Below, piece after piece: positions 1,880 to 64,000 of a DNA stretch of 64,000 nucleotides. The first letter of the stretch is position 1, and each line of letters starts with the position of its first letter. The position numbers and the translations under genes were made by a program. Origin of the DNA: Narcine bancroftii (Eukaryota); assembly GCF_036971445.1 (NCBI RefSeq), contig NC_091475.1, positions 204,848,001 to 204,912,000 on the forward strand. The letters are read 5' to 3'. Under the pieces are notes generated by a model, which made no database searches, was not told where the DNA came from, and saw only the letters and a list, made by a program, of their open reading frames with translations.

Positions 1880-2190
1880 GGAGATCTGCGATCAGTGATA
1901 TGTTGCCAAGGTTGATGCTGGGTCCATTGTTGTCTACCATCTACATTCACAATTTAGATGCAATCTAATTAACAGGATTAGTAAATGTGAAGAAGGCATC
2001 AACATTTTAGGTTTTGTGGGCTGTGAGAAAGGATGCTTAAATTTACTACAGGATCTGGATTGGTTTAGAATGTGGGATTGAAGTGGTAAATGGAATTTAA
2101 CTGAAAAATGTGAGGTGTTGAAATTTGGCAAGTCAAACCTGGGGTAGACTTGCACAGCAAATGGTAGGGCCCTGGAGAGTATTCCCAGGT
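1880..2190 (+). mobile_element. CR1 RT fragment
   Basis: Decayed VPQG..LGPLL and W.MEFN.EKCEVL.FG motifs. Confidence 0.6.
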
Positions 2191-2199
2191 CCATCACAG

Positions 2200-2700
2200 G
2201 CACTGACTGCCTATCCATTCCCAACATTAATGCAAGATGCCCTCCTTCTTCCAAAAATATATGGCTTCCCTTCTGGCACAATCAACCCGGTCCTCACTCA
2301 GATGTTCTCCATTTCCTGCACATCCACCCCAGCCCCCTACACCACCAGTGCAACAAGAACAGGATTCCCCTTGTTCTCACCCACCAGCCTCCATATCCAA
2401 CATATTATCCTCTGCAATTTCCACCATTTACAACATGATCCCACCACCAGACATATCTTCCCCTCTCCTCCCCTCTCCACATTCTTCACCCTCCATGTTT
2501 CCCTGGTCCACTCCTTCTTCCCCACCTACCCCCGTGATCGCAGGAAATGCTGCACTTGCACCCACTACCATTCGGGGCCCTTGGAAGCAGTCCTTCCAAA
2601 TGAATCTGCGGGGGTCATCCACTGCACCCGGTGCTCCTGTTGTGGCCTCCTCAACACTGGAGGGACCAGGGTCCTCTTAGCAGCTAACCATTTCAATCAC
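2200..2700 (+). mobile_element. Penelope-like ORF fragment (RT-GIY-YIG linker)
   Basis: GFPSGTIN...PLFSPTSLHIQHIILCNFHHLQHDPTTRHIFPSPPLS...IHCTRCSCCGLL in ORF 2125-2832. Confidence 0.75.
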
Positions 2701-3213
2701 TGTTGCTCAAAGAGGGGGTGCTTGGTTTATTCCACATGGACTTCCCACAATCAGAGACCACCTAGACACTGGATATCAGCCTTAACTAATGATGGCCCCC
2801 AAACACCAATTGTTGTGCACAGGCAATGTTGAAAGCAATTCAGAGCAAATAAAACAGAAGGAATTTAATCATTCTTTCAAAGTCCTTTCACAGATTTCAT
2901 CTGTGCTGTATCATTCTACAACTCCATCACCTTTCCTCTTCCACAATCGATGTGGACAGTCCTATTCTGCAGAGCACATCCATAAATCTCTGTAATTGCC
3001 CTCTGCTGTTCAATCTTCCAATCCTCTCATGTAATTTCCAATGCTTATGGGTTGGAGGCACTTGAATACATCCTTTTCTTGATCCAGTGTCCTCCAGCCT
3101 CTTCGTGGACTTTTGCTTCTACTCCCTTTTTTTTCATTCTGTTATTTCCTCCTTCAAATTCATGATGATCCTCCATAATCCTTCATTTCAATTCCCTTCC
3201 CTTTCTGCTCCTT

Positions 3214-3438
3214 TGTGATGGAACACAGTAATACATGCTTTGTACTGGTTTGCCTTCCCCTGATACTGTACCTCCTCCCCCTCCAGAATTCCTAATAAAG
3301 GCAGAACCACCCAATCTCTTCCCTCTATACTACCTTGGATATGGGCCAACAGCATTTAAGAGAAGGCTGTAAGTTTATAGTGATTAAAGCCTATTAATCT
3401 TGACGTCTGGTCTGTTGGGTATAATTGATAGCACTGCA
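3214..3438 (+). repeat. 5' LTR of element 1
   Basis: TG...CA, 225 bp, homologous to 7197-7422 and to split solo LTR 45003-45641. Confidence 0.9.
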
Positions 3439-6400
3439 ATTTAATCACCATAACTGCATGGCATGGACGAGGCTATTCAAGTGGAGAAGCTGGACACTGA
3501 CCCTAAGGATCCAGGGGTCTCTGTAAAATTCGACCACCTTTATGAAACATGACATTTGGGAAGAAGTCAAGGAGAGAGGCCAGCTGTTTGCACAGGTCGG
3601 CCACCGTGTTTTCCAGATGATCAGGGACTGTGACACTGGCCCAGCCTCTGTAGGGCTCTGAAGAACATAATCTACAGCTGATACTCAGCCGTTGGTAAGC
3701 ACCTGGTGAATCTGTTGACAATTACATTTGGGCCTTGTGGGAGCTGAGTTAAGCTTGTGGCTGCACAGACATTACGACACCTGTCTACCAAGAGGATTTG
3801 ATCAGGGACGCCTGTGCAGCTGGTCTCAGGTCTGACCATATTTGACAAAGGCTCTTGGAGAATGACGATCGAACCCTGCAGGACATGGTCAATCTCGCCA
3901 AGGCACTACAGATGGACCAACTGAATGTGAACACTTACTCCTCCAGAAAAGTGGCTGCCAAATGGGGAGCATGGGTGTCGCCATCTTAGGATATGGGGTC
4001 CCAAACAGCAGCCATTATTGCTGAGCGTCGGAGGTGAGATTACTAAGGCCAGACAAAGCACCCTTGGAGGAACTGTCCTGCTAGAAGTTCGACTTGCTCC
4101 AACTGCAGAAGAAAAGGACACTATGCAAGGATATGTAGATCCAGACCTTCCCCTTGCAGCACTGCATGCAAGCAGCAGCCATCGCCATCTTGGACCGCAT
4201 CATTTCCAGTTCCACTTCTGGTAATGGAGAACATCATGGTGGGGACCTTGGCGTGACAGCTGGGGTTAACGTCACTTCCAGCTTTACTTCCGGCAGCAAC
4301 CGCTTGTGAACCATGGGGGCAGGCATCTTCAGGGTGATCATCTTGGATGTCGCTGACGCATATGTACAGTAGCTGAGAGTCAGGCAACGAACTGACGCTG
4401 ACATCCAATGTCTGGACCAGAGCAGCCCACATTAATTAGCAAGGTTCATTGAGGTAAACGGGTGCATTACTAACTGCTTGTTCAACACGGGAGGCATCAA
4501 CACTTTACACACCTGGGTACTGTACAGCACTGCTCCCTCACAGTGACCACAGTCCAGTGTAAAATCTCATTGGCCTTTAATCCCATTCAACTGAAATAAC
4601 TGAAGTAACGAAAACTGTGGGTGGTACCAAGAATTTTAAATTGTTCGTTATGTCACAACTCTGTGCACCAGGCATGCGGGGGCTGGACTTGCAGTGCCAA
4701 TTTAAAAGTGTTCTAATGGAATATGGCAGGTCCCACCCTCCCTCACGGTCCGTAATAATCGACTTTTAAACCACCTGCCCATCTCCGTAAAATCAGCCCA
4801 TCAGAAACCTGAACACACCCCACCTGCTCACGACCTGCGGTCTGTCCATCTTCCAAGTCCCACCGCCCCCCATTCGAAAATGCCACTCCTGACGGTAAGC
4901 CTAGGGCAACTAAGAGCAGGCGATACAATCCTGGGTACAGAGACTTTATCAAGGTTGACTCCTGGCAGAGGGCATCATAGGACCCAACACAGCCCTTGAA
5001 GAGCACAGACAGTGGTTGTAAAGAGGGGGGAGAAGCACAGGATGGTCATAGACTACGCCAGACCATCAACAAGTTCACCCTCTTGGATGCCTATCCCCTC
5101 CCCCACATAGCCAGCATGGTGAATGAGATTGTCCAATACGGGGTCTTCTCCAGCATTGACCACAAGTTGGCCTATCCCAGCTCCCAATCCGGCCAGACTC
5201 CTTTAGAGTCATGAACGGAGTTTCGGTCTTCCAGAGTGAGATGGACCGAATAATGGATGGCCACCAACTGAAAGCCACATTCCCCTACCTGGACAACGTG
5301 ACTATCTGTGGCCATGAACTGTAGGATCAAGATGCTCTCCTGCGAAAATTCCTCCAGATGGCAAAAGTCCTAAATCTCACATATAACCAGAAGAGTAGAG
5401 CCTCTGGCTCTACTAGAGTGCATGGTTGAGAATGGAGTCATTGGATCCGACCCTGAGCATATGCAGCCCCTGCTCAAGCTCCCACTCCCCCATAACTTCA
5501 AGGCCCTGAAAAGGTTCCTGGGGTTCTTTTCATACTATGCTCAATGCATCCCCAATTATGTGGACAAAACCCACCCCCTGGTAAAAACTACTACCTTTCC
5601 CCTGTCGGCAGAAGCCCTGGTGGCCTTCACTCACATCAAAAGTGGCATTGCCAAGGCAGCGATGCACACCACAGACAAATCCATCTCATTCCAGGAGAGC
5701 AATGCATCCGACTTTGCCCTGGCTGCTACGCTGAACTAGGTGAGCAGGCCGGTGGCATTTTTTCTCACGTACCTTCCAGGGTCCCGAACTCCGACACTCA
5801 GCCATTGAAAAAGAGGCCCAGGCCATAGTGAAAGCTGTGCACCACTGGAGACATTATCTATCCGGCAAACCGTTCACTCAGCTGACTGACCAACTTGTAG
5901 TCGCAATTATGTTTAACAACAAACAGCAAGGAAAAATTAACAACCACAAGATCCTGAGGTGGAGAATTGAACTGTCCACCTACAACTACCAGCCCAGGAA
6001 GATTAACGAGCCTCCCGATGCCCTAACAAGGTACCTGCACCAACGCACAAGCAGATCACCTCCAAGCCCTTCACCGCAGCCTCTGTCACTCCAGGGTCAC
6101 CAAATTCTATTGCTTTGTGAGAGCCCACAACTATACGTACCAGGTGGAGGACACCAGGGAGCTGACCTGCAGCTACCTCGACTGCATGGAGTGCAAGCCG
6201 CATTTCTAGCGGCTGGAGAAAGCTCACCCGCCTCTTTGAATGTCTAAGTATGGAATTCAAGGGCCCTCTCCCCACCACGAACTAGAACATATCCCATTCG
6301 CCATCCACTGGCCAGATAGGACTACGACCACTGTTATTAAGTCCCTACATAAACTCTTCATGCTCTTCAGATACCCGAGTTACATCCACAGTGACCGGGT

Positions 6401-7196: not shown

Positions 7197-7422
7197 TATG
7201 GTGGAACACTGTATTACAGTCATTGTACTGGTGGGCCTATCCCCGATATTGTAACTCCTCCCCCTCCAGAATTCCAAATAAAGGCAATGTCACCCAATTC
7301 CCCTCCCTCAGTACTGCCTTGGAATCAAGCCAACAGCATGAAAGCTATGCCTGTAAGTTTATAGCAATTAAAGCCTATTAATCTCGACTTCTGGTCTGTC
7401 GGCTCTAATTGATAGTGCCACA
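7197..7422 (+). repeat. 3' LTR of element 1
   Basis: Directly follows PPT, ends GATAGTGCCACA, direct repeat of 3214-3438. Confidence 0.9.
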
Positions 7423-21706: not shown

Positions 21707-24700
21707 TGAAATGCCAGTTGATGAAGTAGACAAAGACGATGTGGTCAAACAATAATCATGGCTTTTATTCACAGAAACTCATGGTACAATAATGAAAGAC
21801 AATAGATGCACATACAGTTATATCCAAGGGGAGTGTCCTTAACAGAAGAGATAACGCACAGCCAATGTTAGTACAGCAAGGCTCGCCAGAGGGGAGACAG
21901 GCAGCTTGGCAGAGATTCACCACAGTCTCCCCCCAGCAGAAGAAGGGTTAAAATCAAAAGGACAGCTGCTAGGAAAGACTGAAGCAAGCGATACATGGAT
22001 ATTATGTTTGGCTTTGAGATACTCCAACAGCCAAAATACGCCAGTATCTAGCAAGTAATCAAAATATAATGTGATGTTTTATGAATATGTCGGCCTATCA
22101 GGCTGTTTATGAATTCTGGTGCTTCGTCTCAAAACAGGTCGCTCCTTTGCAACCTTGGGAACTGGTACAGGTCCTAGGTCTGTAGTGTGGGAAGGACTGG
22201 CTTCTGGACCCGCTCCAGAATTGCCAGCGTGAGGCAGTGGAGCCTCAGCATGGCCATCTGAAAGCTGACTAGGTCACAAGTTGGGGGGGTGAGTCCAACC
22301 TCTCAGGATTACTCTGAGTAGGGGTGTGGGGAAGGGGAGAACCAGGCGAGGCCAGATCTCTTAGGGGTACAGTGTCAGTACTCCCGTCTGGGAATTTAAC
22401 ATGAGCGTAGTTGGGGTTAGTATGCAGTAGCTGAACTGGTTGGACTAGGGGGTCTGTTTTACGTGCCCGAGCGTGGCTCTTCAGTAGCACGGTTCCAGGC
22501 TCAGATAAACAGGCTGGCCAGTCCATTACAGTTCCTGATTTCCTAGGAAAGGCAAACATACATTCATGAGGTGTTTGATTTGTTGCAGTACACAATAAAG
22601 ACCGAATGGAATGTAGTGCCTCAGGCAGCACCTCCTGCCACCGGGTAACAGGGTAACCATGTGTTTTTAAAGCAAGATTAACAGTCTTCCAGACTATAGC
22701 ATTAGCCCTTTCAACCTGCCATTGCCCTGTGGGTTGTAGCTCGTGGTACGGCTGGTGGCAATCCCATTTTGTAGCAGGGCTCGCCGCAGTTCAACGCTCA
22801 TGAATGCTGAGCCTCTACCGGTATGAATGTAATTGGGAAAACAAAAAATGCTGAAAATTCTGTCGTGACTTAGTGACAGACGCTGACGAGACGACAGGGC
22901 AGGGTATCGCAAAGGGAAACCTGGAATATTCGTCAATTACAGTAAGGAAATATACATTTTTGTTGTTGAAAGGTAACGGCCCTTTAAAATCTAAGCTAAT
23001 ACTCTCCAAAGGTCGGGTTGCCTTGATGAGAGTGGCCTCTGGAGCTTTGAAGTATTACGGTTTGCATTCTGCGCAAACAGGACAGCTTTTAGTCAATTTC
23101 CTGACTTCTTCCAGAGAGTAAGGAAGGTTGTTAGCCCTTATGTAGTGGAAGAATCTCATGACTCCTGGGTGGCACAGTCTGCTATGGATCTCTTTTAGCC
23201 CCTCCAGCTGAGCACCAGCAGCAGATCGTGACAATGTGTCAGAGGGATCGTTTAACCTGCCCGGTCTGTACTGGATCTCATAATTATAAGCTGAGAGTTT
23301 TATTCGCCAGCGTGCCATCTTATCGTTCTTGATTTTACTTTTGTGTTTAGTACTGAACATGTAGGCTACAGATTCCTGATCAGTGACAAGAGTAAATTTT
23401 CTGCCAGCTAGAAAGTGTCTCCAGTAGCGAACAGCTTCAATAATAGCCTGGGCTTCTTTTTCAATGGCAGGATGTTTAAGTTCAGGTCCGCGTAACGTGC
23501 GGGAGAAGAATGCCACAGGTCTGTCCTTTTGATTAAGGGTTCCTGCCAAGGCACAATCTGAGGCATCAGTTTCCACTTGGAATGGAACATCCTCGTCAAT
23601 GGACAAGAGTGCAGCTTTGGCAATATCAGCTTTAATTCTCTCGAAAGCCTTCAAGGCCATTGGAGAGAGAGGAAAAGATTTAGTGTGAAACAGAGGGCGT
23701 GGCTTCGTGGCGTAGTCCCGAACCCATTTGCAGTAGTAGGAAAAGAATCTCATACAGCTTTTAAGGGCTTTTGCTGAGTTTGGGGGTGGTAACTTCTTAA
23801 GGGGGGCCATTCTTTCCGGGTCGGGGCGGATTTCGCCCTTGCGGACAATGTAGCCCAGAATGGGTAGCTCTGTCGCATTGAACACACACTTGCCCTCGTT
23901 AACTGTAAGGTTGACTTCTTTAGCTGTTGCTAAAAATTTCTTTAAGTTGTTGTCGTGATCAGCCTGTGTTTTCCCACAGATAGTGACATTATCTAGATAG
24001 GGGTATGTACCCTGTAACTCATACGTCCTAACAATCTTAACCATTTCCCTCTGAAACACGGACACACCATTAGTGACCCCAAAAGGTACCCTTTTAAACT
24101 AGCATAACCCTCCCTCAGCCTCAAAAGCCGAATAGGGCCATTGCCTTTTCTTAATGGGGATTTGGTGATAAGCTGCTTTGAGGTCGATAGTGGAGAACAC
24201 TTTGTATTGCGTTATCTGATTAATCATTTCATTGATGCTTGGCAGGGGGTAGGCATCCAGGTTAGTGTAACGATTGATTGTCTGGCTGTAATCAATAGCC
24301 AGTCGTCTCTTAGTGTGATTTTTCACGACTACCACTTAGGCCCGCCACGGACTCTTACTAGGTTCAATTACTCCCTCTTTAAGCAATCTCTGGGTCTCAG
24401 CTTTGATAAACTCACGATCCTCTTTGCTGTAAGAACGGTTCTTAGTGGCAATCAGTTGACACTCAGGGGATAAATCACTGCATCTTTAATGTGAACAGAC
24501 CACAGTAACTTGCACGGGGAATGGTAAATGTGGGTAGCGGCCCACCAAAATTTAACACTACACTTTCATCTGAGATTGAATATCTAACCCCAGTAACACA
24601 GGGGCGCAGAGCTCTGGCATAATAAAGAGCCACACATCAGTCAGGCAATGTCCCTGCAAATTTAAAGTAACTTTACAGTTGTCCCGTACAGTTTTTGTAA

Positions 24701-25979
24701 GTTCACTACAAGCCATTGATATCTTTCGGTTCGCTGGATATCTCCGCAAATTTAAGGTTCTGGCAACTCTCTCGTGGATGTAGCTGTCAGTACTCCCCAA
24801 GTCTATTAGACAATCAAGAGTCTCACCATTCACCTTCCCCCTTCATAGTCGACCATTCCAGTCTGTAACATCCCCCAAGCTTTGGAGTCAATTGAGCTAT
24901 CACAGGGGATCTCACCTCGCCGTCACTTGATGTCGATTCAGCCTGCTCGTCTGAAGATTCCCCCTTTTCACAGTTGTCTTCCATTCCTGCATCTCCAGGA
25001 AGCATTTTTTTTGGTGGTTCTCTTCTTCTTCTTATCAGTGGGAGTATTTTTCGCCTTACGCGCTTTAGCGAAGTGGCCGAGTTTCCCACAATAGCTGCAG
25101 ATAGCAATCGAGCCGGGCACTTCTGTCTTGGGTGCCAGCTCTTATCACAGAAGTAGCATTTTCAAGAGTTCGCCCTTTTCTTTCCTTCGGGATTCCAGGA
25201 CTCCTGGATGTTTCCTTTTCGGTTTCTAGCATTTCACTGGACCGCATGGCACTTCTCAGTGTTTTGGCTAGAGTGACTGCCCGGTCGTAGGTTAATGGCT
25301 CTGTCTCCAGCATCCGCTGTCGGATGTAACTGGAGTCAATCCCGTTGACTGAAGCATCCAGCTTCAAAGCATTGCGGTGTTGTTGCACCTTGACTGCCCT
25401 GACATCACATTCATTTGCCAGTGAGTCGAGAGCCAGTGCATAGGCAGCATCACTTTCCCCGGGGTTTCTGGCCTCTAGTCAGCAACTGGTGTCGAGCAAG
25501 CACCACATTCTGTGGCGGTGCGTAGTAAGCGGTCAGACGTTCCCGGGCTACAGCCAGAGGGGTAGCTCCTTGCGTTACGGCGAAAGGGTCCTCACCCAGC
25601 AGGTGGCCCAACTGTATCACCTCATCGACCATGTTGTTTCGAGCCATGTAGTAATCGAAACAAGCAATCCAGTGGTTGAAAACTTCTCTGGCCCTTGGGG
25701 CAGACTGGTCGATTATCAGCCGCTCTGGCCTAAGGGCTGCATCCATTTCTGCTAATAAAATTGAAGGGCCAGTTGATGACGTAGACAAAGACGATGTGGT
25801 CAAACAATAATCATGGCTTTTATTAGCATAAACTCATGGTACAATAATAAAAGACAATAAATGCATATACAGTTATATCCAAGGGGAGTGTCCTCAACAG
25901 TAGAGATAATGCACAACTAATATTAGTACTGCAAGGCTCGCCAGAGGGGAGACAGGCAGCTTGGCAGACATTCATCACA
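21707..25979 (-). mobile_element. Full-length Ty3/Gypsy LTR retrotransposon (element 2), best-preserved copy
   Basis: LTRs 25762-25979 and 21707-21924 (218 bp, about 18 mismatches by eye); PPT GGGGGGAGAC; gag ATG 25746 (MDAALRPERL); protease CLIDLGSTDSYI; RT; RNase H; integrase SLDFKGPLP, TVIDEYSRFPFA. Confidence 0.95.
23055..24065 (-). pseudogene. pol: pol fragment of element 2 (RT C-terminus, RNase H, integrase zinc finger)
   Basis: 336 aa ORF: YPYLDNVTICG, VETDASDCALAG, AIEKEAQAI, LVTDQ, HSRLCHPG...CPVCAECKP. Confidence 0.9.
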
Positions 25980-44333: not shown

Positions 44334-44754
44334 CAGTACAACTCCGATTATCCAAAATCAGATTCTCCGAAATCCTCATTTATCCGAAAACTTTTTAAAA
44401 CTTCCGGATAAATGAGGATATCCGAAACAAATCGTAAGTCCTCATTTATTCAAGAGTTTTTCAGAGCTGAACTTATCGGGAATATCGGGCTGCCAGCGGC
44501 AGCAGGAACTTCAGGATCCGGGCAGGAGTGGTCACTCAGTGGGGAGGTGTTGTAATTAGCAGCGCCCAGCTTTTATTTGATGCGAATTAACCGTTATTTT
44601 AATGCTTAAAAAGCCTTCCTTGTTGTTTAAACACTATTTCAGGTGAATTGCTGTTACTACTGGGCTGTTTTGAAAAAATGACCAGTTCTCCAAATAAGCG
44701 ATTTACCTGACATGGGCCCGGACCCGACCATTTTGGATAATCAAAGTTGTAGTC
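44334..44754. mobile_element. Tc1/mariner (Tigger/pogo-like) MITE
   Basis: TIRs CAGTACAACTCCGATTATCCAAAAT / ATTTTGGATAATCAAAGTTGTAGTC flanked by TA. Confidence 0.8.
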
Positions 44755-45002: not shown

Positions 45003-45641
45003 TGTGGTGGAACACTGCCTTACAGTCAATGTACTGGTTGTTCCACCCTGATACTGTAACTCCTCCCCCTCCAGAATTCCTAATAAAGGTGGTATCGTTC
45101 AGTCCCCTCCCTCATACAGATACACGATCCTTTATCCGGAACCCTTGGGGGACAGTGTGTTCCAAATTTTGGATTTTTCCAGATTTTGGAAAGCCAGATT
45201 TAAGCCCACCCAAATTATGCTGCCGGTCTCCCCCCACCCACCCTCGCCCGGCTGACTTGCGTTGCCGTTCTCCCCCGCCTTGCCTGCCTGACTCACACTG
45301 CCGTTCTCCACCCCCCTCGCTCACCCGAGTCACACTGCCGATCTCCCCCCCCCCCCCCCGACTCGCGCTGCCAGTCTCTCTCCCTCATCCCCGCCGACTC
45401 GTGCTGCAGGTCTCTCCCCCTTGCCCACCACCCCCCCCCCCCGACTTTTGCTGCCGTCTCTCTCTCTCCCCACTTGCTAGATTTTGGAGCTTTCCAGATT
45501 TTAGATGTCCGGATAAAGGATAGTGTGCAATACTGCCTTGGAATTGGGTCAAGAGCATGTAAGATATGCCTGTAAATTTATAGCGATCAAAGCCTATTAA
45601 TCTTGACTTATAGACCGTAAGGCCTAATTGATACCGCTGCA
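45003..45641 (+). repeat. Solo LTR of the element-1 family, split by a MITE
   Basis: 45003-45116 plus 45531-45641 rebuild the LTR; perfect 5-bp TSD CCCTT. Confidence 0.9.
45117..45530. mobile_element. Tc1/mariner-type MITE with internal minisatellite
   Basis: TIR ACACGATCCTTTATCCGGA / TCCGGATAAAGGATAGTGT, TA duplication, ~35-bp GACTCGCGCTGCCGGTCTCCCC-like tandem units. Confidence 0.85.
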
Positions 45642-46061: not shown

Positions 46062-46907
46062 TCATGATTCAAGATTCAATTTATTGTCATAGGAATAAAA
46101 CAGGGTCATATTACATGAAATTTCTTTTTGCCTGCTGCAAGGCAGACAGATTCGCCACAGGCAGGAATTGTGTAAGCTCCTCTTATAGACTTAGTCAGAG
46201 AGAGAAAAGCAAAAGAGATTCCCTTGAGTCACCTCCATAGATTTGCCCCCAGTGCTTCCACAGCCCCTGATACCACACAGAGTCCAGTGCAAACCACTGG
46301 CAAACCAAGCTCCAGATTGGAACCTCCCACACAGTCAGGAACCCTTCAGTGCCCTCGGCATCTCCTTGCATCCCAGTTCTGATACATCATACCCTTCCAG
46401 TCAGTTTGAGCCAGTCTCCTGCAGTCTGCTTGAGTCGGCTTGAGTCTCCTGACAGCAGTGTCCAGCAACCCACAGCTTCCGCGGGTTCCTTGCCTCAAGT
46501 CGCCAGTAGCCCGCCACATGCACAGGCTCCTCATCCGCAGAGCCCCCTCACTGGTATGCTGCCATGGTCACTGTCCCTGTGGATTGTCTCCTCCGCTTCC
46601 CCTGTCAGGCGGTGTGTGATCGTCCCATTCTCTGGGGTCCTGCTCCAGTCTCTCTGCTTCCCTGGTGTCTGCAGCCTCTCGTGGCCGCTGCCGATTAATA
46701 GGCGTTGCCATCTTGAGCGCAGACCTACGGTCACAGGATTTCAATTAAAACCACCGTCGGCTCCATCAAAGCCTGGCAGAGCCGATGGCAGTCGACTGGG
46801 CTGCTGGACCCCAAGGGAGCACTGCATCTCCGCTTCCCCTTTCCCTCCGGTTCTGCACCAGGGGCAGTGCTGCCGCTACAGCTGCTCCGACAGCGCTGCC
46901 ATCTTGA
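46062..46907 (-). mobile_element. Family B non-coding retroelement, near-complete copy
   Basis: Minus strand starts CAAGATGGCAGCG and ends TGACAATAAATTGAATCTTGAATCATGAA; interrupts CR1. Confidence 0.65.
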
Positions 46908-48064
46908 CCTTCCATGAAACTAAAGAGCTATACAAAATTAGATAGAGTAAATGCAAGTAGGATTTTCCACTGAGGGTAGGTGAGATGCAAACCAGAGGAC
47001 CTGGGCTAAGGGAGAAAGCAAAAAAGTTTAGGGGGGAACATGAGGAGGAATTTTTTTCACACAGAGAGTGGTGAGAGTGGGGATTGAGCTGCCAGCTGAC
47101 GTGGTGAATGCTGGCTCAATCTTAACATTGAAGAAAAATTTAGGCTAGTGTATGGATGGCTATGGACTGAATGCAGGCCAGTGGGAGTAGGCAGGATAAT
47201 AGTTTGGCACAGACAGGACAGGCCAAAGAGCTTGTAGCGTTCTATGGCTCTATGGTTCCATTATTATGAAATTAAATCTTTGCAGTAACATCAACTTGTG
47301 ATTAGAAAGGATCAAGGAAAAAGTGCCCTGGTTTGCTTCCTCTAAAATTACCATTTGAAATATTAATGTCAAAGATAATGTTTTCCCTAAATGCTGTGCA
47401 AATATTTAATAAGGTTTAATTGAAAAATGAACTCTTTACATGTTGGGACAGTTCCATAGAGACACATCATTTCGCTGATAGAGTGAAAGTGGGAACACAG
47501 CTCTGGAAAAAATACAGGCTTGACTATATCAATTTGCCTCTATGCAGCAGGGGTAGTCCCTCTGGGAGTACTGAGCAGAATTGAATGAAGCAGAGAAGTC
47601 GGGGGGGGGGGGTGGAAAAAAAAGAGGAAGGAAGAGAGAAGAAATTATGAAAGAGAGGGAAAGATAGAGGGCAAATGTGAGAAAATGGAGAGAGAGAGAG
47701 AAAGAAAGACAAACAGAATATAGAACATAGAAGCCCAGTGCAGGCCCTTCAAAGCACAATGTTATGTTGATTTATGTAAACCTACTCACTACAATCCAAT
47801 CTTTCCCTGCCTCACACCCATAACCCTCGATATTTCTTGCATCCATGTGCCTGCCTGAGTCTTTTAAATGTCCCTATTGTACCAGCCTCCACCACCACAG
47901 ACAGCATAGCATTTCAGACACCCATCCCTCTCTGGGTAAAAGAATCCTTACCCCTGACATCTCCCCTCAACTTTCCTCCCTTTACCTTATACAGATGTTT
48001 TTTTTTCTTTTATTATTTGCTACTGTGGCCCCTGAAAATATATGTGCTGGCTGTCCACCTTATC

Positions 48065-60312: not shown

Positions 60313-60816
60313 TAAGATTCTTGGTGAATCTTTGTCTGCCTTTCAGTTGACTAAGCAAATTTCATGTAAAATTACATCTGTTTTATCACATGACCGTAGA
60401 GGAATCTTGAATGTTGATGAACAGCTACAATGTTCACCATGTTAGCCATGCTTCAGGAACCACCGCTGATGGTCTAATGGTGATTATCCAGGGTTCGTCG
60501 ACTAGTGACATGCAAATTGGCCGCTGTCATTAGAACTCTTGCAAGGCAAGCTCCGACTTTGAGTTAAGCCAGGTTGAGCAGTCATGTGAAACCAGATTAA
60601 AATGCAAATCTTTTTGTAAGTCACTGCTTGGATCCTGAACCAGACCACATGTGAGTCCAGGATTAGAGTAAGAGTGAAAGAGTATGAGAAAGGGTGCAAG
60701 TGAAAGAGGAATGGAGGGGGAGATAGGGAGCTCCCACGGCTCAATTGAAACCTAGAGTAAAATGTGTGATTGGAGTAAAAGCACAATGCTGGAGAAACTG
60801 AGCAGGTCTAACAGAG

Positions 60817-63800
60817 TATGGTAAACCACTTTGTACATTTATCTATCTGGACATGCCCATTGGCTGATTTCACCTGTGGCCCCACCTACTGACACCTGAA
60901 TAAATCTGATTGTTCCACAATGCCTTCCCAGTCCAGGACAGTCGACCAGCATGGAAGTGCCTCTATTCTATTGTGAATAAAAGCCTCTCACTTCTACAGA
61001 ACTTTCAGTCTTTTGGAGTTATGGTGCATCAATTTTATTCACAATAAATTTTGACAATGGAGCAGATCCTGAAGGCAGAGACGTTGAAAATCGACCCTCA
61101 ATCAATTGTAACCTACACCGACCTCAAACTCCGGCTGCGTTGCTTTGAAGCGTTCCCACAGACATCACTTGCCATCGTTCGGTCAGACAGCTGCAGGTAC
61201 TACACTCCTGGGTTGGGGCTCTAGTGTACTCAATGATCAGGGATACTTGCGTTGTACCCAGAGGAGACGAACATTCTGAAACAATGTCTACGTGAGCCAC
61301 TCAAAAACAGTGACCTGGGGAGTTGAGCGCTGTGTACCTCCAGGCTCTATGAACTTTCAGATGGGCCTGTGACTGCAAGGTCTTGTCGGCCGCAGAGAAC
61401 ACTGAAAACCTGATTAGAGACATGTACATCGCAGGCATCAAGTCCAATTACATCCGCCAGACTGCTGGAGCAATGTGAGAACAATTTGCAAAGGGCAGTC
61501 AAACTGGCAGGCCAGAATATGGAAGCCTACTTGGCCGACAACTTGAACTCATTGTGGTTTCCCCAGGCACTGCCAACTTTCGACGCGCCGCGAGCACCTA
61601 ACTCTGCTAACATCATGTTCTGCCAATGGCCCAACCACAGCCGCTGTACTCTGTGAGCACCCAAAATTCTACTTCTGTGGCCTGGACAAGCACTCGAGGA
61701 AATGCTGCCTGGCGAAAAACAGAGTCTGCTACCACTGTTGGAAAAAAGGACATTATACGAAAGTGTGTAAATCCAAGTCACCCTAATCTAGCAACGTCAC
61801 TTGCAGACTGTGGGGGATTCCATCTTGGATGCAGCCATCTCCGAGACCCAGCAGCGTCATGAGCAAGCCTTAAGGGTTGCCATCTTGGATGCCACCATCT
61901 TTGAAACCCAGCATCGCTGCGTGCGAGCCATGGGGACTGTCATCTTGAATGCCACCATCTTGCGATTGAACACACAATCTCTCCGCCGCAACTACAGATA
62001 GCGACCCGATAATGGCCTCCATCATGTTAAATCAAGGTAATCCTCACCAACTCGCCCGATCGATGATGGACATCCAGGTAAACGGCCGCATGACAAGCTG
62101 CCTATTCAATAGTGGGAGCAAAAAGAGCTTTACCATTCCGACAAGGTGCAGTGCTACTCCCTCTCAGTTAGGCCAATGAGTCATAAATTCTCATTGGCCT
62201 CAAAGTCCCATACAGTTGATGTCTGTGGCTACTGCATAATAACTTTGACTGTGAAGGGCACTTTAAACTCCTGGTGCTGTCACAACTATGAGCTGCCATG
62301 TTACTTGGACTGGAATTCCAATGCCACCTTAAAAGTGTGATGATGGAGTATGAGGGACCCCCTTTTCCCCACCCCCTCACTGTCTGTAACCAGCAGTTCT
62401 TAAACCGCCCACTATACTCCACCAACAACTACTCCTCGGACACTTCCCCCACCGTTCCCAGCCAACAACCCGGCCATCGCTCACTGCACACGGCCTGTGG
62501 ACTCACAATTCTAAAGATTACCCCTCCATCACTGTTCACTAACCTCACCCCCAACTGCAAACCCATTGCCACCAAAAGCAGATGGTTCAGTGCCAGGAAC
62601 AGGGATTTATTAGGCCGGACATGGAGCGGCTACTCAACGAGGGGATCATCAAAGCCAATACCAGCCCGTGGAGAGGCCAAGTGATGGTGGTGAGGAATGG
62701 AGAGAAAAACAGAATGAATATTGACTACAGTCAGACCATTAACAGATGTAGACAGCTGGACGCGTACCCTTTTCCCCGCATATCTGATATGGTGAACCAA
62801 AATGCGCAATTTTGGATTTTCTCCTCCATTGACCTTAAGCCAACTTATCACCAGCTTCCCATCTGCATGGAGGACCATCAATACACCGGTTTAAAGGCAA
62901 TTGGCCACCTCTATCATTTCCTGAAGGTTCCCTTCGGCGTCACCAAAGGGGTTTTGGTCTTCCAGCGGTATATGGACCAAATGGTCGACCGATATGAACT
63001 GCAGACCACATTCCCATATCTGGACAGTGTCACCATTTGTGCCACGACCTGCAGGATCATGACGCCAACCTCAAAAAATTCCTCTAGATAGCCAACCTCA
63101 CATATAACAAAGCTAAATGCATATTTCACACAACCCGCCTTGCCATCCTTGGCTGTGTCCTAGAGAACAGAGTCAATGGACCCCAACCCCAATCGCATGC
63201 ACCCGCTTTTGGAACTCCTCCTCCCCCACAGGATCGAACCCTGAAAAGGAACCTGGGCTCCCTTCCCTACAATGTCCAGTGAGTCTCTAATTATGTGAAC
63301 AAGGCCCACTCCCTTGTTAAATCTACCTGGCACCAGAGGCCCGTGCAGCTTTCAGCCACATCAAAGCAGACACTGCCAAGGCTACGATGAACGCTGTGGA
63401 TGAATCCACCCCATTCCAGGTGGAGACCAATGCGTCCAACTTTACCCTGGTGACCACACTTAACTAGGCAGGCAGACTCATCACTTCCTTTTCACACAGC
63501 CTCCAGGCCCTGAAATTCGACACTCCTCTGAGGAGAAGGAGGCCCAAGCTATTGTCGAGTGGTGCAGCACTGGGGACACTACCAAGCTGGCAAACGATCG
63601 ACCATGCTGACTGACCAGTGGGCAGTGGCACTCATGTTCAACAACCAGCAGCATGTAAAATCAAAAATGACAGGATATTGAGGTGGAGAATTGAACTTTC
63701 CACTTACAATCTTGTACTGACCCAGGAAACTCAATGAGCTTCCAGTCACTCTATCCCACTGAATGTGCACCAGTGCACAAATAGACTGATTGCAAACCCT

Positions 63801-64000
63801 CCACAGCAATCTCTGCCACCCTGGAGTCACCACGTTCTTCCATTTTATCAAAGCCCGCAATCGTCCTTACTCCATCGAGGAGATCAGGACAGTGACCAGA
63901 AGCTGCCAGGTCTGCGCAGAATGCAAACCCCATTTCTATCGACCAGACAGAGCGCAACTGATAAAGGCTACTCTCCCTTTGAACACCTGAGCATCAAGTT
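60817..64000 (+). mobile_element. Decayed Ty3/Gypsy LTR retrotransposon (element 3), runs off the window
   Basis: 5' LTR 60817-61031; gag ATG 61057 (MEQILKAETLKIDPQ); CCHC (CYHCWKKGHYTKVC); RT SPWRGQVMVV..DYSQTINR..LDAYPFPRI..FPYLDSVTIC; integrase LCHPG..CQVCAECKP. Confidence 0.92.

Follow-up and report, generated by a model that had tools for sequence, protein, structure and literature searches.

We found that a clade of short Gypsy retrotransposons, represented three times in the 64-kb stretch of DNA analyzed here (the window), carries directly past its 5′ LTR a site complementary to the LTR itself, and this fold-back is confirmed as real and as conserved across animals. Judging from sequence comparisons, the clade very probably primes its own reverse transcription with a long primer derived from R and ending at the poly(A) signal. 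Self-priming from an arm at the poly(A) signal had been put forward in a first-pass annotation of this DNA, and it is supported by junction fossils left by mis-copied insertions, by covariation, and by the lack of a match to the 18 host tRNA genes tested. Because breakpoints in these fossils cluster at the transcription start and just past the arm, the primer is probably a capped R fragment of 31 to 53 nt that ends in the poly(A) signal, and not the first 11 nt of the mRNA as in Tf1.

In element 3, positions 61033-61046 form the exact reverse complement of 60969-60982 across a 50-nt loop, and the site begins after one spacer base (61032) beyond the terminal CA of the LTR, both as first annotated (Table 1). 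Elements 1 and 2 share the register, as was also annotated. Element 2, on the minus strand, has an 11-bp duplex with a loop of 57 nt; element 1, with a loop of 51 nt, has one A:C mismatch (13/14 paired) and carries ATTAAA in place of AATAAA. A second LTR past the window end and a target duplication of 5 bp mark element 3 as a genuine insertion. Among 30 copies of its family, 23 could be parsed, and all 14 positions were paired in 13 of them, 13 positions in 4, and 12 in 6 (G:U allowed). The folding energy of the whole 136-nt leader was no better than that of shuffled sequences (z = -0.75), so the signal is the single helix and its covariation rather than global stability. An Rfam search of 60700-61200 gave no match. 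One family copy (L042) carries the same TATA-like box as element 3, and by analogy with two families in which the start was mapped, the element 3 primer is predicted to be 60930-60982 (53 nt).

Table 1. Features of the three fold-back elements, numbered from the first base of the window.
Feature	Position	Strand	Remarks
Element 3, target duplication, left copy	60812-60816		5 bp
Element 3, 5′ LTR	60817..61031	+	215 bp; ends CA (61030-61031)
Element 3, TATA-like AATAAA box in U3	60899..60904	+	predicted promoter element, from the sequence
Element 3, predicted start (A of initiator-like motif)	60930	+	~30 nt past TATA-like box; by analogy with two mapped families
Element 3, LTR arm (predicted primer 3′ end)	60969..60982	+	predicted cut after 60982
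Element 3, poly(A) hexamer inside arm	60976-60981	+	
Element 3, loop	60983..61032	+	50 nt (rest of R, U5, one spacer base); template of predicted strong-stop cDNA
Element 3, putative primer-binding site	61033..61046	+	complementary to arm, not to tRNAs tested
Element 3, gag-pol	61057..64000	+	decayed (frameshifts, stops); runs beyond the window
Element 1, arm	3375..3388	+	ATTAAA type; within 5′ LTR 3214-3438
Element 1, putative primer-binding site	3440..3453	+	13/14 paired
Element 1, 3′ LTR	7197..7422	+	ends approximate
Element 2, arm	25818..25828	-	within 5′ LTR 25979-25762
Element 2, putative primer-binding site	25750..25760	-	11 bp
Element 2, intact RT/RNase H/integrase-zinc-finger stretch	23055..24098	-	used as search query
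Element 2, 3′ LTR	21707..21924	-	

Several other features were seen in or next to the window. A short deletion has removed both the arm and the poly(A) signal from the 3′ LTR of element 3 (L031:4270-4431, just past the window), and the arm in the 3′ LTR of element 2 (21765-21780, minus strand) is unlike that of its own 5′ LTR and resembles that of element 3. An interrupted solo LTR of element 1's family occupies 45003-45089 and 45530-45641. Overlapping perfect inverted repeats of 15 bp and 11 bp with short loops lie at 44372-44449, and stop-to-stop open frames at 2122-2832 (plus strand, 236 codons) and 46271-46945 (minus strand, 224 codons).

The elements have the characters of Ty3/Gypsy retrotransposons: a length of 4.0 to 5.0 kb, LTRs of 150 to 300 bp bounded by TG...CA, a polypurine tract, 5-bp target duplications, and the domain order protease-RT-RNase H-integrase (Pfam; relatives and element 2). 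The nearest solved RT in the PDB was that of Ty3, an ESM Atlas search with gag returned generic gag clusters only, and neither a chromodomain nor an SH3_Tf2-1 domain was present in any of the seven proteins examined. Named relatives came from rays, a shark, a sea anemone, a tunicate (P0103), and a nematode; two clade proteins labeled bacterial in metagenome-assembled genomes (P0015 and P0059) are probably host contamination. One family of the source genome is very young, with LTRs 99 to 100% identical in 8 of 10 fetched copies (those giving a pair) and open frames of up to ~1,500 codons.

In a quick RT tree, which includes frameshifted rows with long branches, 34 rows grouped together (SH-aLRT 100) to the exclusion of rows from the same data that we labeled C-clade-like, Gmr1-like, or sushi-like by motifs and gene order. 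The C-clade-like copies (L189-L191) branch apart from the fold-back clade, which places the latter outside the Mag C-clade (SURL-like). Grouping of the RT with Tf1/sushi, which together with a start site at the arm would have made this the known mechanism, was not seen either: the clade is separate from the sushi-like row (one short decayed copy) and has no chromodomain. We do not regard it as a member of Tf1/sushi because its arm lies away from the start site and a chromodomain is lacking. Among named clades the likeliest candidate is Cigr-1, whose elements are ~4.1 kb long with 245-bp LTRs. Like the fold-back elements, Cigr-1 elements are short single-ORF Gypsy elements of animals (tunicates, molluscs, and annelids), although self-priming is not mentioned for them in the available text of PMC6238403 and PMC8556966. 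The supplement of PMC6238403 groups the Cigr-1 clade under Mag.

The fold-back is widespread. A pattern fixing only 6 pairs matched 9,275 times in the source genome versus 134 times for a reversed control, and in the first 30 matches the perfect duplex had a median of 14 bp, being at least 10 bp in 24. From metagenomes we took 80 loci by RT similarity alone; 51 had enough upstream sequence and 21 gave LTR pairs, one of which (L073) belonged to a neighboring element. A perfect fold-back of 11 to 19 bp was found in all 20 relatives with an LTR pair around the RT. In the remaining 31 loci it measured at least 13 bp in 7 and 9 bp in 2, and most of the others lacked a gag start or LTR; none was found in the 115 nt upstream of gag in L059. 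Viral contigs gave 212 pattern matches, none of which was confirmed. At L049:2001-9603, a fold-back element is nested in another LTR element with a TGG-type tRNA site.

The covariation proposed from the three elements of the window was borne out across 30 families (12 from the source genome, partly picked by the 6-pair pattern, and 18 from metagenomes). The leader and LTR of the same family formed a duplex with a median of 14 bp (8 to 19), compared with 5 bp in 870 cross-family pairs, in a comparison of mutually related families made without phylogenetic correction. The own leader was strictly the best partner in 28/30 families, the site started 1 nt after the CA in 30/30, and duplex positions 6 to 14 showed two to four different Watson-Crick pair types. 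Other positions hardly vary: counted from its end, the arm has A at positions 1 to 3 in 29 to 30 of the 30 families and G, in an initiator-like context, at position 10 in 26, and the second base past the arm is C in all 30. The G-C pair at position 10 (60973 in the arm and 61042 in the site of element 3) thus recurs in 26/30 families with any hexamer type, at a fixed distance from the predicted cut. In five families GTTAAA or TTTAAA closes the arm, and the hexamer lies in the loop instead (canonical in three, variant in two), so the helix outlasts its overlap with the poly(A) signal. Priming is the probable conserved job of the helix, with poly(A) masking as a probable second job in most families.

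The absence of a tRNA-type site, also part of the first-pass annotation, was upheld. The 12 source-genome leaders pair over only 4 to 5 nt with host tRNAs in a partial set of 18 genes for 10 amino acids, and, as in Tf1/sushi elements, the site is complementary to the element's own LTR and not to the 3′ end of a tRNA from these 18 genes. In the young C-clade-like Gypsy family L189-L191 of the same genome, used as a control, a 14-nt stretch pairs with the tRNA-Ser(GCT) 3′ end, and the fold-back is only 4 bp long. Primers of insect Mag elements are given as tRNA-Leu, Ser, or Arg in the available part of PMC3286476. One metagenome leader (L092) showed 13 nt of pairing to the interior of a fish tRNA-Thr, which we took as chance because the host differs and its own LTR pairs equally well. 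Since the sites match their own LTRs family by family, little room is left for a host primer.

Retrocopies with a poly(A) tail were used to locate the ends of the transcript. Nine of 22 A-run candidates matched LTRs of the clade (4 families), with the A-run 15 to 20 nt past the hexamer and flanking duplications of 9 to 17 bp in four of the nine. Twelve candidates with no match to reference LTRs were dropped, as was L236, whose A-run was 30 nt away, and L228 was taken as read-through since it begins upstream of the predicted start. These copies show the hexamer to be a working poly(A) signal. The direct evidence for the start from a retrocopy is a single case, L225, a complete short copy consisting of a 17-bp duplication, a G, LTR positions 141-207, and poly(A). 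In this young family, position 141 holds the A of an initiator-like motif; a TATA-like box begins 33 nt before it, at 108, and the arm, which spans 178-192, lies 37 nt downstream of it. L225 also shows the poly(A) signal functioning 45 nt from the start, so suppression at the 5′ end would be needed. Its extra G fits a copied cap but could be inherited, since 11 LTR copies carry a G there; these 11, returned by a search for more G-started retrocopies, were ordinary LTRs with a point variant. The cap-copy idea was rejected, as C-to-G at position 140 occurred in 10/63 cases versus 8/62 at a control C, without excess. Contigs from four presumed-RNA data sets showed no transcript start or end, apart from one loose A-rich end near the poly(A) site that was left uncounted.

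If a primer made of R is extended by copying the loop, the junction of arm, spacer complement, and inverted U5 is predicted, and we searched for integrated copies of it. There were 239 in the young family, 55 in the family of element 2 (family 2), and 1 in that of element 3, with 0 for the controls; 90, 30, and the single one, respectively, were examined. An earlier junction pattern had given 1,664 matches, chiefly to the ordinary U5-leader junction in opposite orientation, and was replaced. The fossils fell into two classes. In class A copies a normal 5′ LTR leads into the complement of R, after which the sequence jumps to varied internal positions, and 15 of the 17 internal stops in the young family lay at LTR 135-162. 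With three same-junction copies merged and one stop at 31 added, 8 of 16 independent stops were within 6 nt of position 141 (p = 2e-5) and 3 were upstream of 135. The predicted start of family 2 is at position 132, and 5 of 11 internal stops were within 6 nt of it (p = 0.003); 5 of the 11 were upstream of the start. One copy (L397) has the exact complement of 132-162 (31 nt) between U5 and a normal leader. Thus, in fossil form, starts are at LTR 141 in the young family and 132 in family 2, and none is at the arm: the start lies 16 to 37 nt upstream of the arm in the two families. The copies bounded by the start could, however, also come from a plus strand annealing to a second, uncut RNA, in which case they would not fix the primer length.

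Class B copies consist of U3-R-arm, inverted loop, internal sequence, and 3′ LTR. The inverted piece ended at 181-202 in 31 of 50 non-terminal cases, with a mode of 192, and in none of the 50 at 135-147, counts in which some copies share a junction. Ends at 181-202 are expected if the template was cut at 192/193. Target duplications of 5 bp flanked 18 of 23 LTR-only palindromes and all 7 class B copies with both ends visible, and no simple loop flips occurred among the 90 examined junction copies. The junction products therefore arose during reverse transcription, before integration. Family 2 junction copies reached the U3 start in 19/30 cases and continued into 3′ internal sequence in 13/30, which points to occasional use of the 3′ LTR arm as template or primer; taken together with the upstream stops, the copies reaching U3 indicate that some fossils were templated on the 3′ LTR or on DNA.

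Two further groups of rearranged copies were noted. Palindromic elements of ~430 bp (L280, L281, L285, L299, L304, L305, L327, L328, L334, L336, L337, L342, L346, L348, L350, L357, L365, and L366) consist of a partial LTR plus an inverted full LTR, with two U3 ends and 5-bp target duplications, and form a by-product class inserted by integrase. In L253, L289, L313, L338, L340, and L341, a 26-nt inverted U5 piece is inserted directly after the arm; the same insert in several LTRs suggests that it was propagated.

Three other explanations were weighed against priming by a long R fragment. The arrangement may be ordinary Tf1 geometry, in which transcription starts at the arm and the first 10 to 14 nt are the whole primer. 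Arm position 10 is G in 26/30 families, position 11 is A or T in 29/30, and positions 12 to 14 are T-rich, an initiator-like composition when compared with the general initiator pattern, so that such a start would fit in some families; young copies also vary at pair positions 15 and 16 without matching changes, and by eye most metagenome LTRs lack a clear TATA box. However, L225 begins 37 nt upstream of the arm, back-copies in the young family pass well beyond the arm to reach the stops at 135-162 (15/17), and L397 copies 31 nt, and we consider this explanation very unlikely. The primer might instead come from the arm copy at the 3′ end of a circularized genome or from a second RNA in trans, the 5′ R remaining uncut. 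In its favor, 13/30 family 2 copies and one young copy (L310) pass from the arm back across U3 and on into 3′ internal sequence. An uncut template would have let the cDNA reach the cap, yet none of the 50 non-terminal class B pieces stops at 135-147, compared with 31 that stop at 181-202, nor was there an excess of cap-type C-to-G changes at position 140 (10/63 versus 8/62). We hold this possibility to be slighter still.

The helix might also do nothing except mask the 5′ poly(A) signal, with some host RNA serving as primer. Folding predicts that pairing of the hexamer is complete in the 5′ context and roughly half lost in the 3′ context, and the signal that works 45 nt after the start in L225 needs suppression, both of which agree with a masking role. 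A role in masking alone does not account for a helix that begins exactly at the primer-binding position in 30/30 families, nor for its retention in the 5/30 families whose signal is in the loop and whose arm is non-canonical, and the copies inserted by integrase carry arm-to-U5 junctions. Nor could any host RNA fit all 30 sites, which differ from one another and are each complementary to the LTR of their own family. We therefore regard this explanation as the most improbable of the three.

Priming by the R fragment would proceed as follows. Transcription would begin ~30 nt past the TATA-like box, at positions mapped by fossils in two families and predicted for element 3. The leader, whose complementarity is plain and whose folding is predicted, would then fold onto the arm, in doing so also covering the 5′ poly(A) signal. 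A cut after the last A of the arm, presumably by RNase H as in Tf1, would free a 3′ A at the position taken by the terminal A of a tRNA. RT would copy the loop of 36 to 66 nt and jump to the 3′ R through ~15 to 20 nt of homology, up to the poly(A) site. Finally, plus-strand synthesis would run back over the primer, still in place, so that arm and site would also stay matched.

Folding models predict that the same helix masks the 5′ poly(A) signal. The modeled probability that the hexamer is unpaired was 0.00 to 0.01 in the 5′ context versus 0.48 to 0.64 in the 3′ context (three families), and since the partner strand lies outside the LTR, the helix would form only at the 5′ end. Stems were also predicted within the loop, where they can be seen by eye; they are at most candidate counterparts of the additional U5 stem-loop needed for Tf1-type priming.

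A joint reading, on which our confidence is evenly balanced, is that priming without a tRNA arose, separately from Tf1, in a Gypsy clade that extends across cartilaginous fish, tunicates, cnidarians, and nematodes. On this reading, a single helix would keep the 5′ poly(A) signal silent while the element is transcribed and would later be cut, directly past that signal, to yield a capped R primer, with hundreds of integrated fossils mapping the start, the cut, and the primer length. To our knowledge, self-priming has been worked out only for the 11-nt primer of Tf1, and the elements credited with it are mostly chromoviruses, along with a single Copia lineage of plants; self-priming Gypsy families of fish and frog are reportedly mentioned in Repbase notes. 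The clade studied here consists of animal elements that are not chromoviruses, has at least 9,000 junctions in the source genome, and appears to prime with a long capped RNA that has the poly(A) signal at its end. If true, this would be an independent origin of self-priming with a different cut substrate, and one helix would couple priming with the suppression of premature polyadenylation. Fold-back elements would also escape a tRNA-fragment defense, as they would not offer the target found in tRNA-primed elements. The fossil method, i.e., reading the breakpoints of mis-copied insertions, is usable for other predicted self-priming families. Our literature search, the scope of which left outside Repbase Reports and the original Tf1/sushi/Cigr-1 papers, found no description of the arrangement, and a brief earlier mention is quite possible.

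In HIV-1, which is primed by tRNA-Lys3, the poly(A) hairpin hides the AAUAAA of the 5′ LTR by pairing local to R/U5. The fold-back clade is predicted to hide this signal at the 5′ LTR by pairing as well, but its partner strand lies outside the LTR and the helix doubles as the primer site. The TAR/Houba/Osr-1 elements, for which self-priming is predicted, likewise have an LTR-complementary site of at least 10 bp at 0 to 5 nt past the LTR, but they belong to the plant Copia superfamily, and the available part of the account gives neither start-site mapping nor overlap with the poly(A) signal (PMC6317226). Self-priming is predicted for plant Tcn1 as well as for TAR in the same source, as far as its text is available (PMC6317226). 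The closest likeness is to Tf1/Tf2 and Tj1 of fission yeasts, the Tf1/sushi chromoviruses, and plant Tcn1, which, in the available portions of the accounts, have no tRNA site and an LTR-adjacent site complementary to RNA derived from their own LTR, need a cut for a 3′ OH, and copy the primer into the plus-strand end (PMC7175516, PMC4600332, PMC6317226, PMC11042837). In Tf1 itself, the site is paired with the initial 11 bases, which RNase H sets free, according to the relevant portions of PMC7175516 and PMC4600332, and a copy of the primer is kept at the cDNA's 3′ end, according to that of PMC11042837. Whereas the Tf1 primer, as these portions describe it, is the first 11 nt of the mRNA and fully paired, the arm of the fold-back clade lies 16 to 37 nt inside R, and its primer would measure 31 to 52 nt in the two mapped families, with the last 11 to 19 nt paired. 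Its cut would fall directly past the poly(A) hexamer, and it differs further from Tf1 in having no chromodomain and in forming a separate RT clade.
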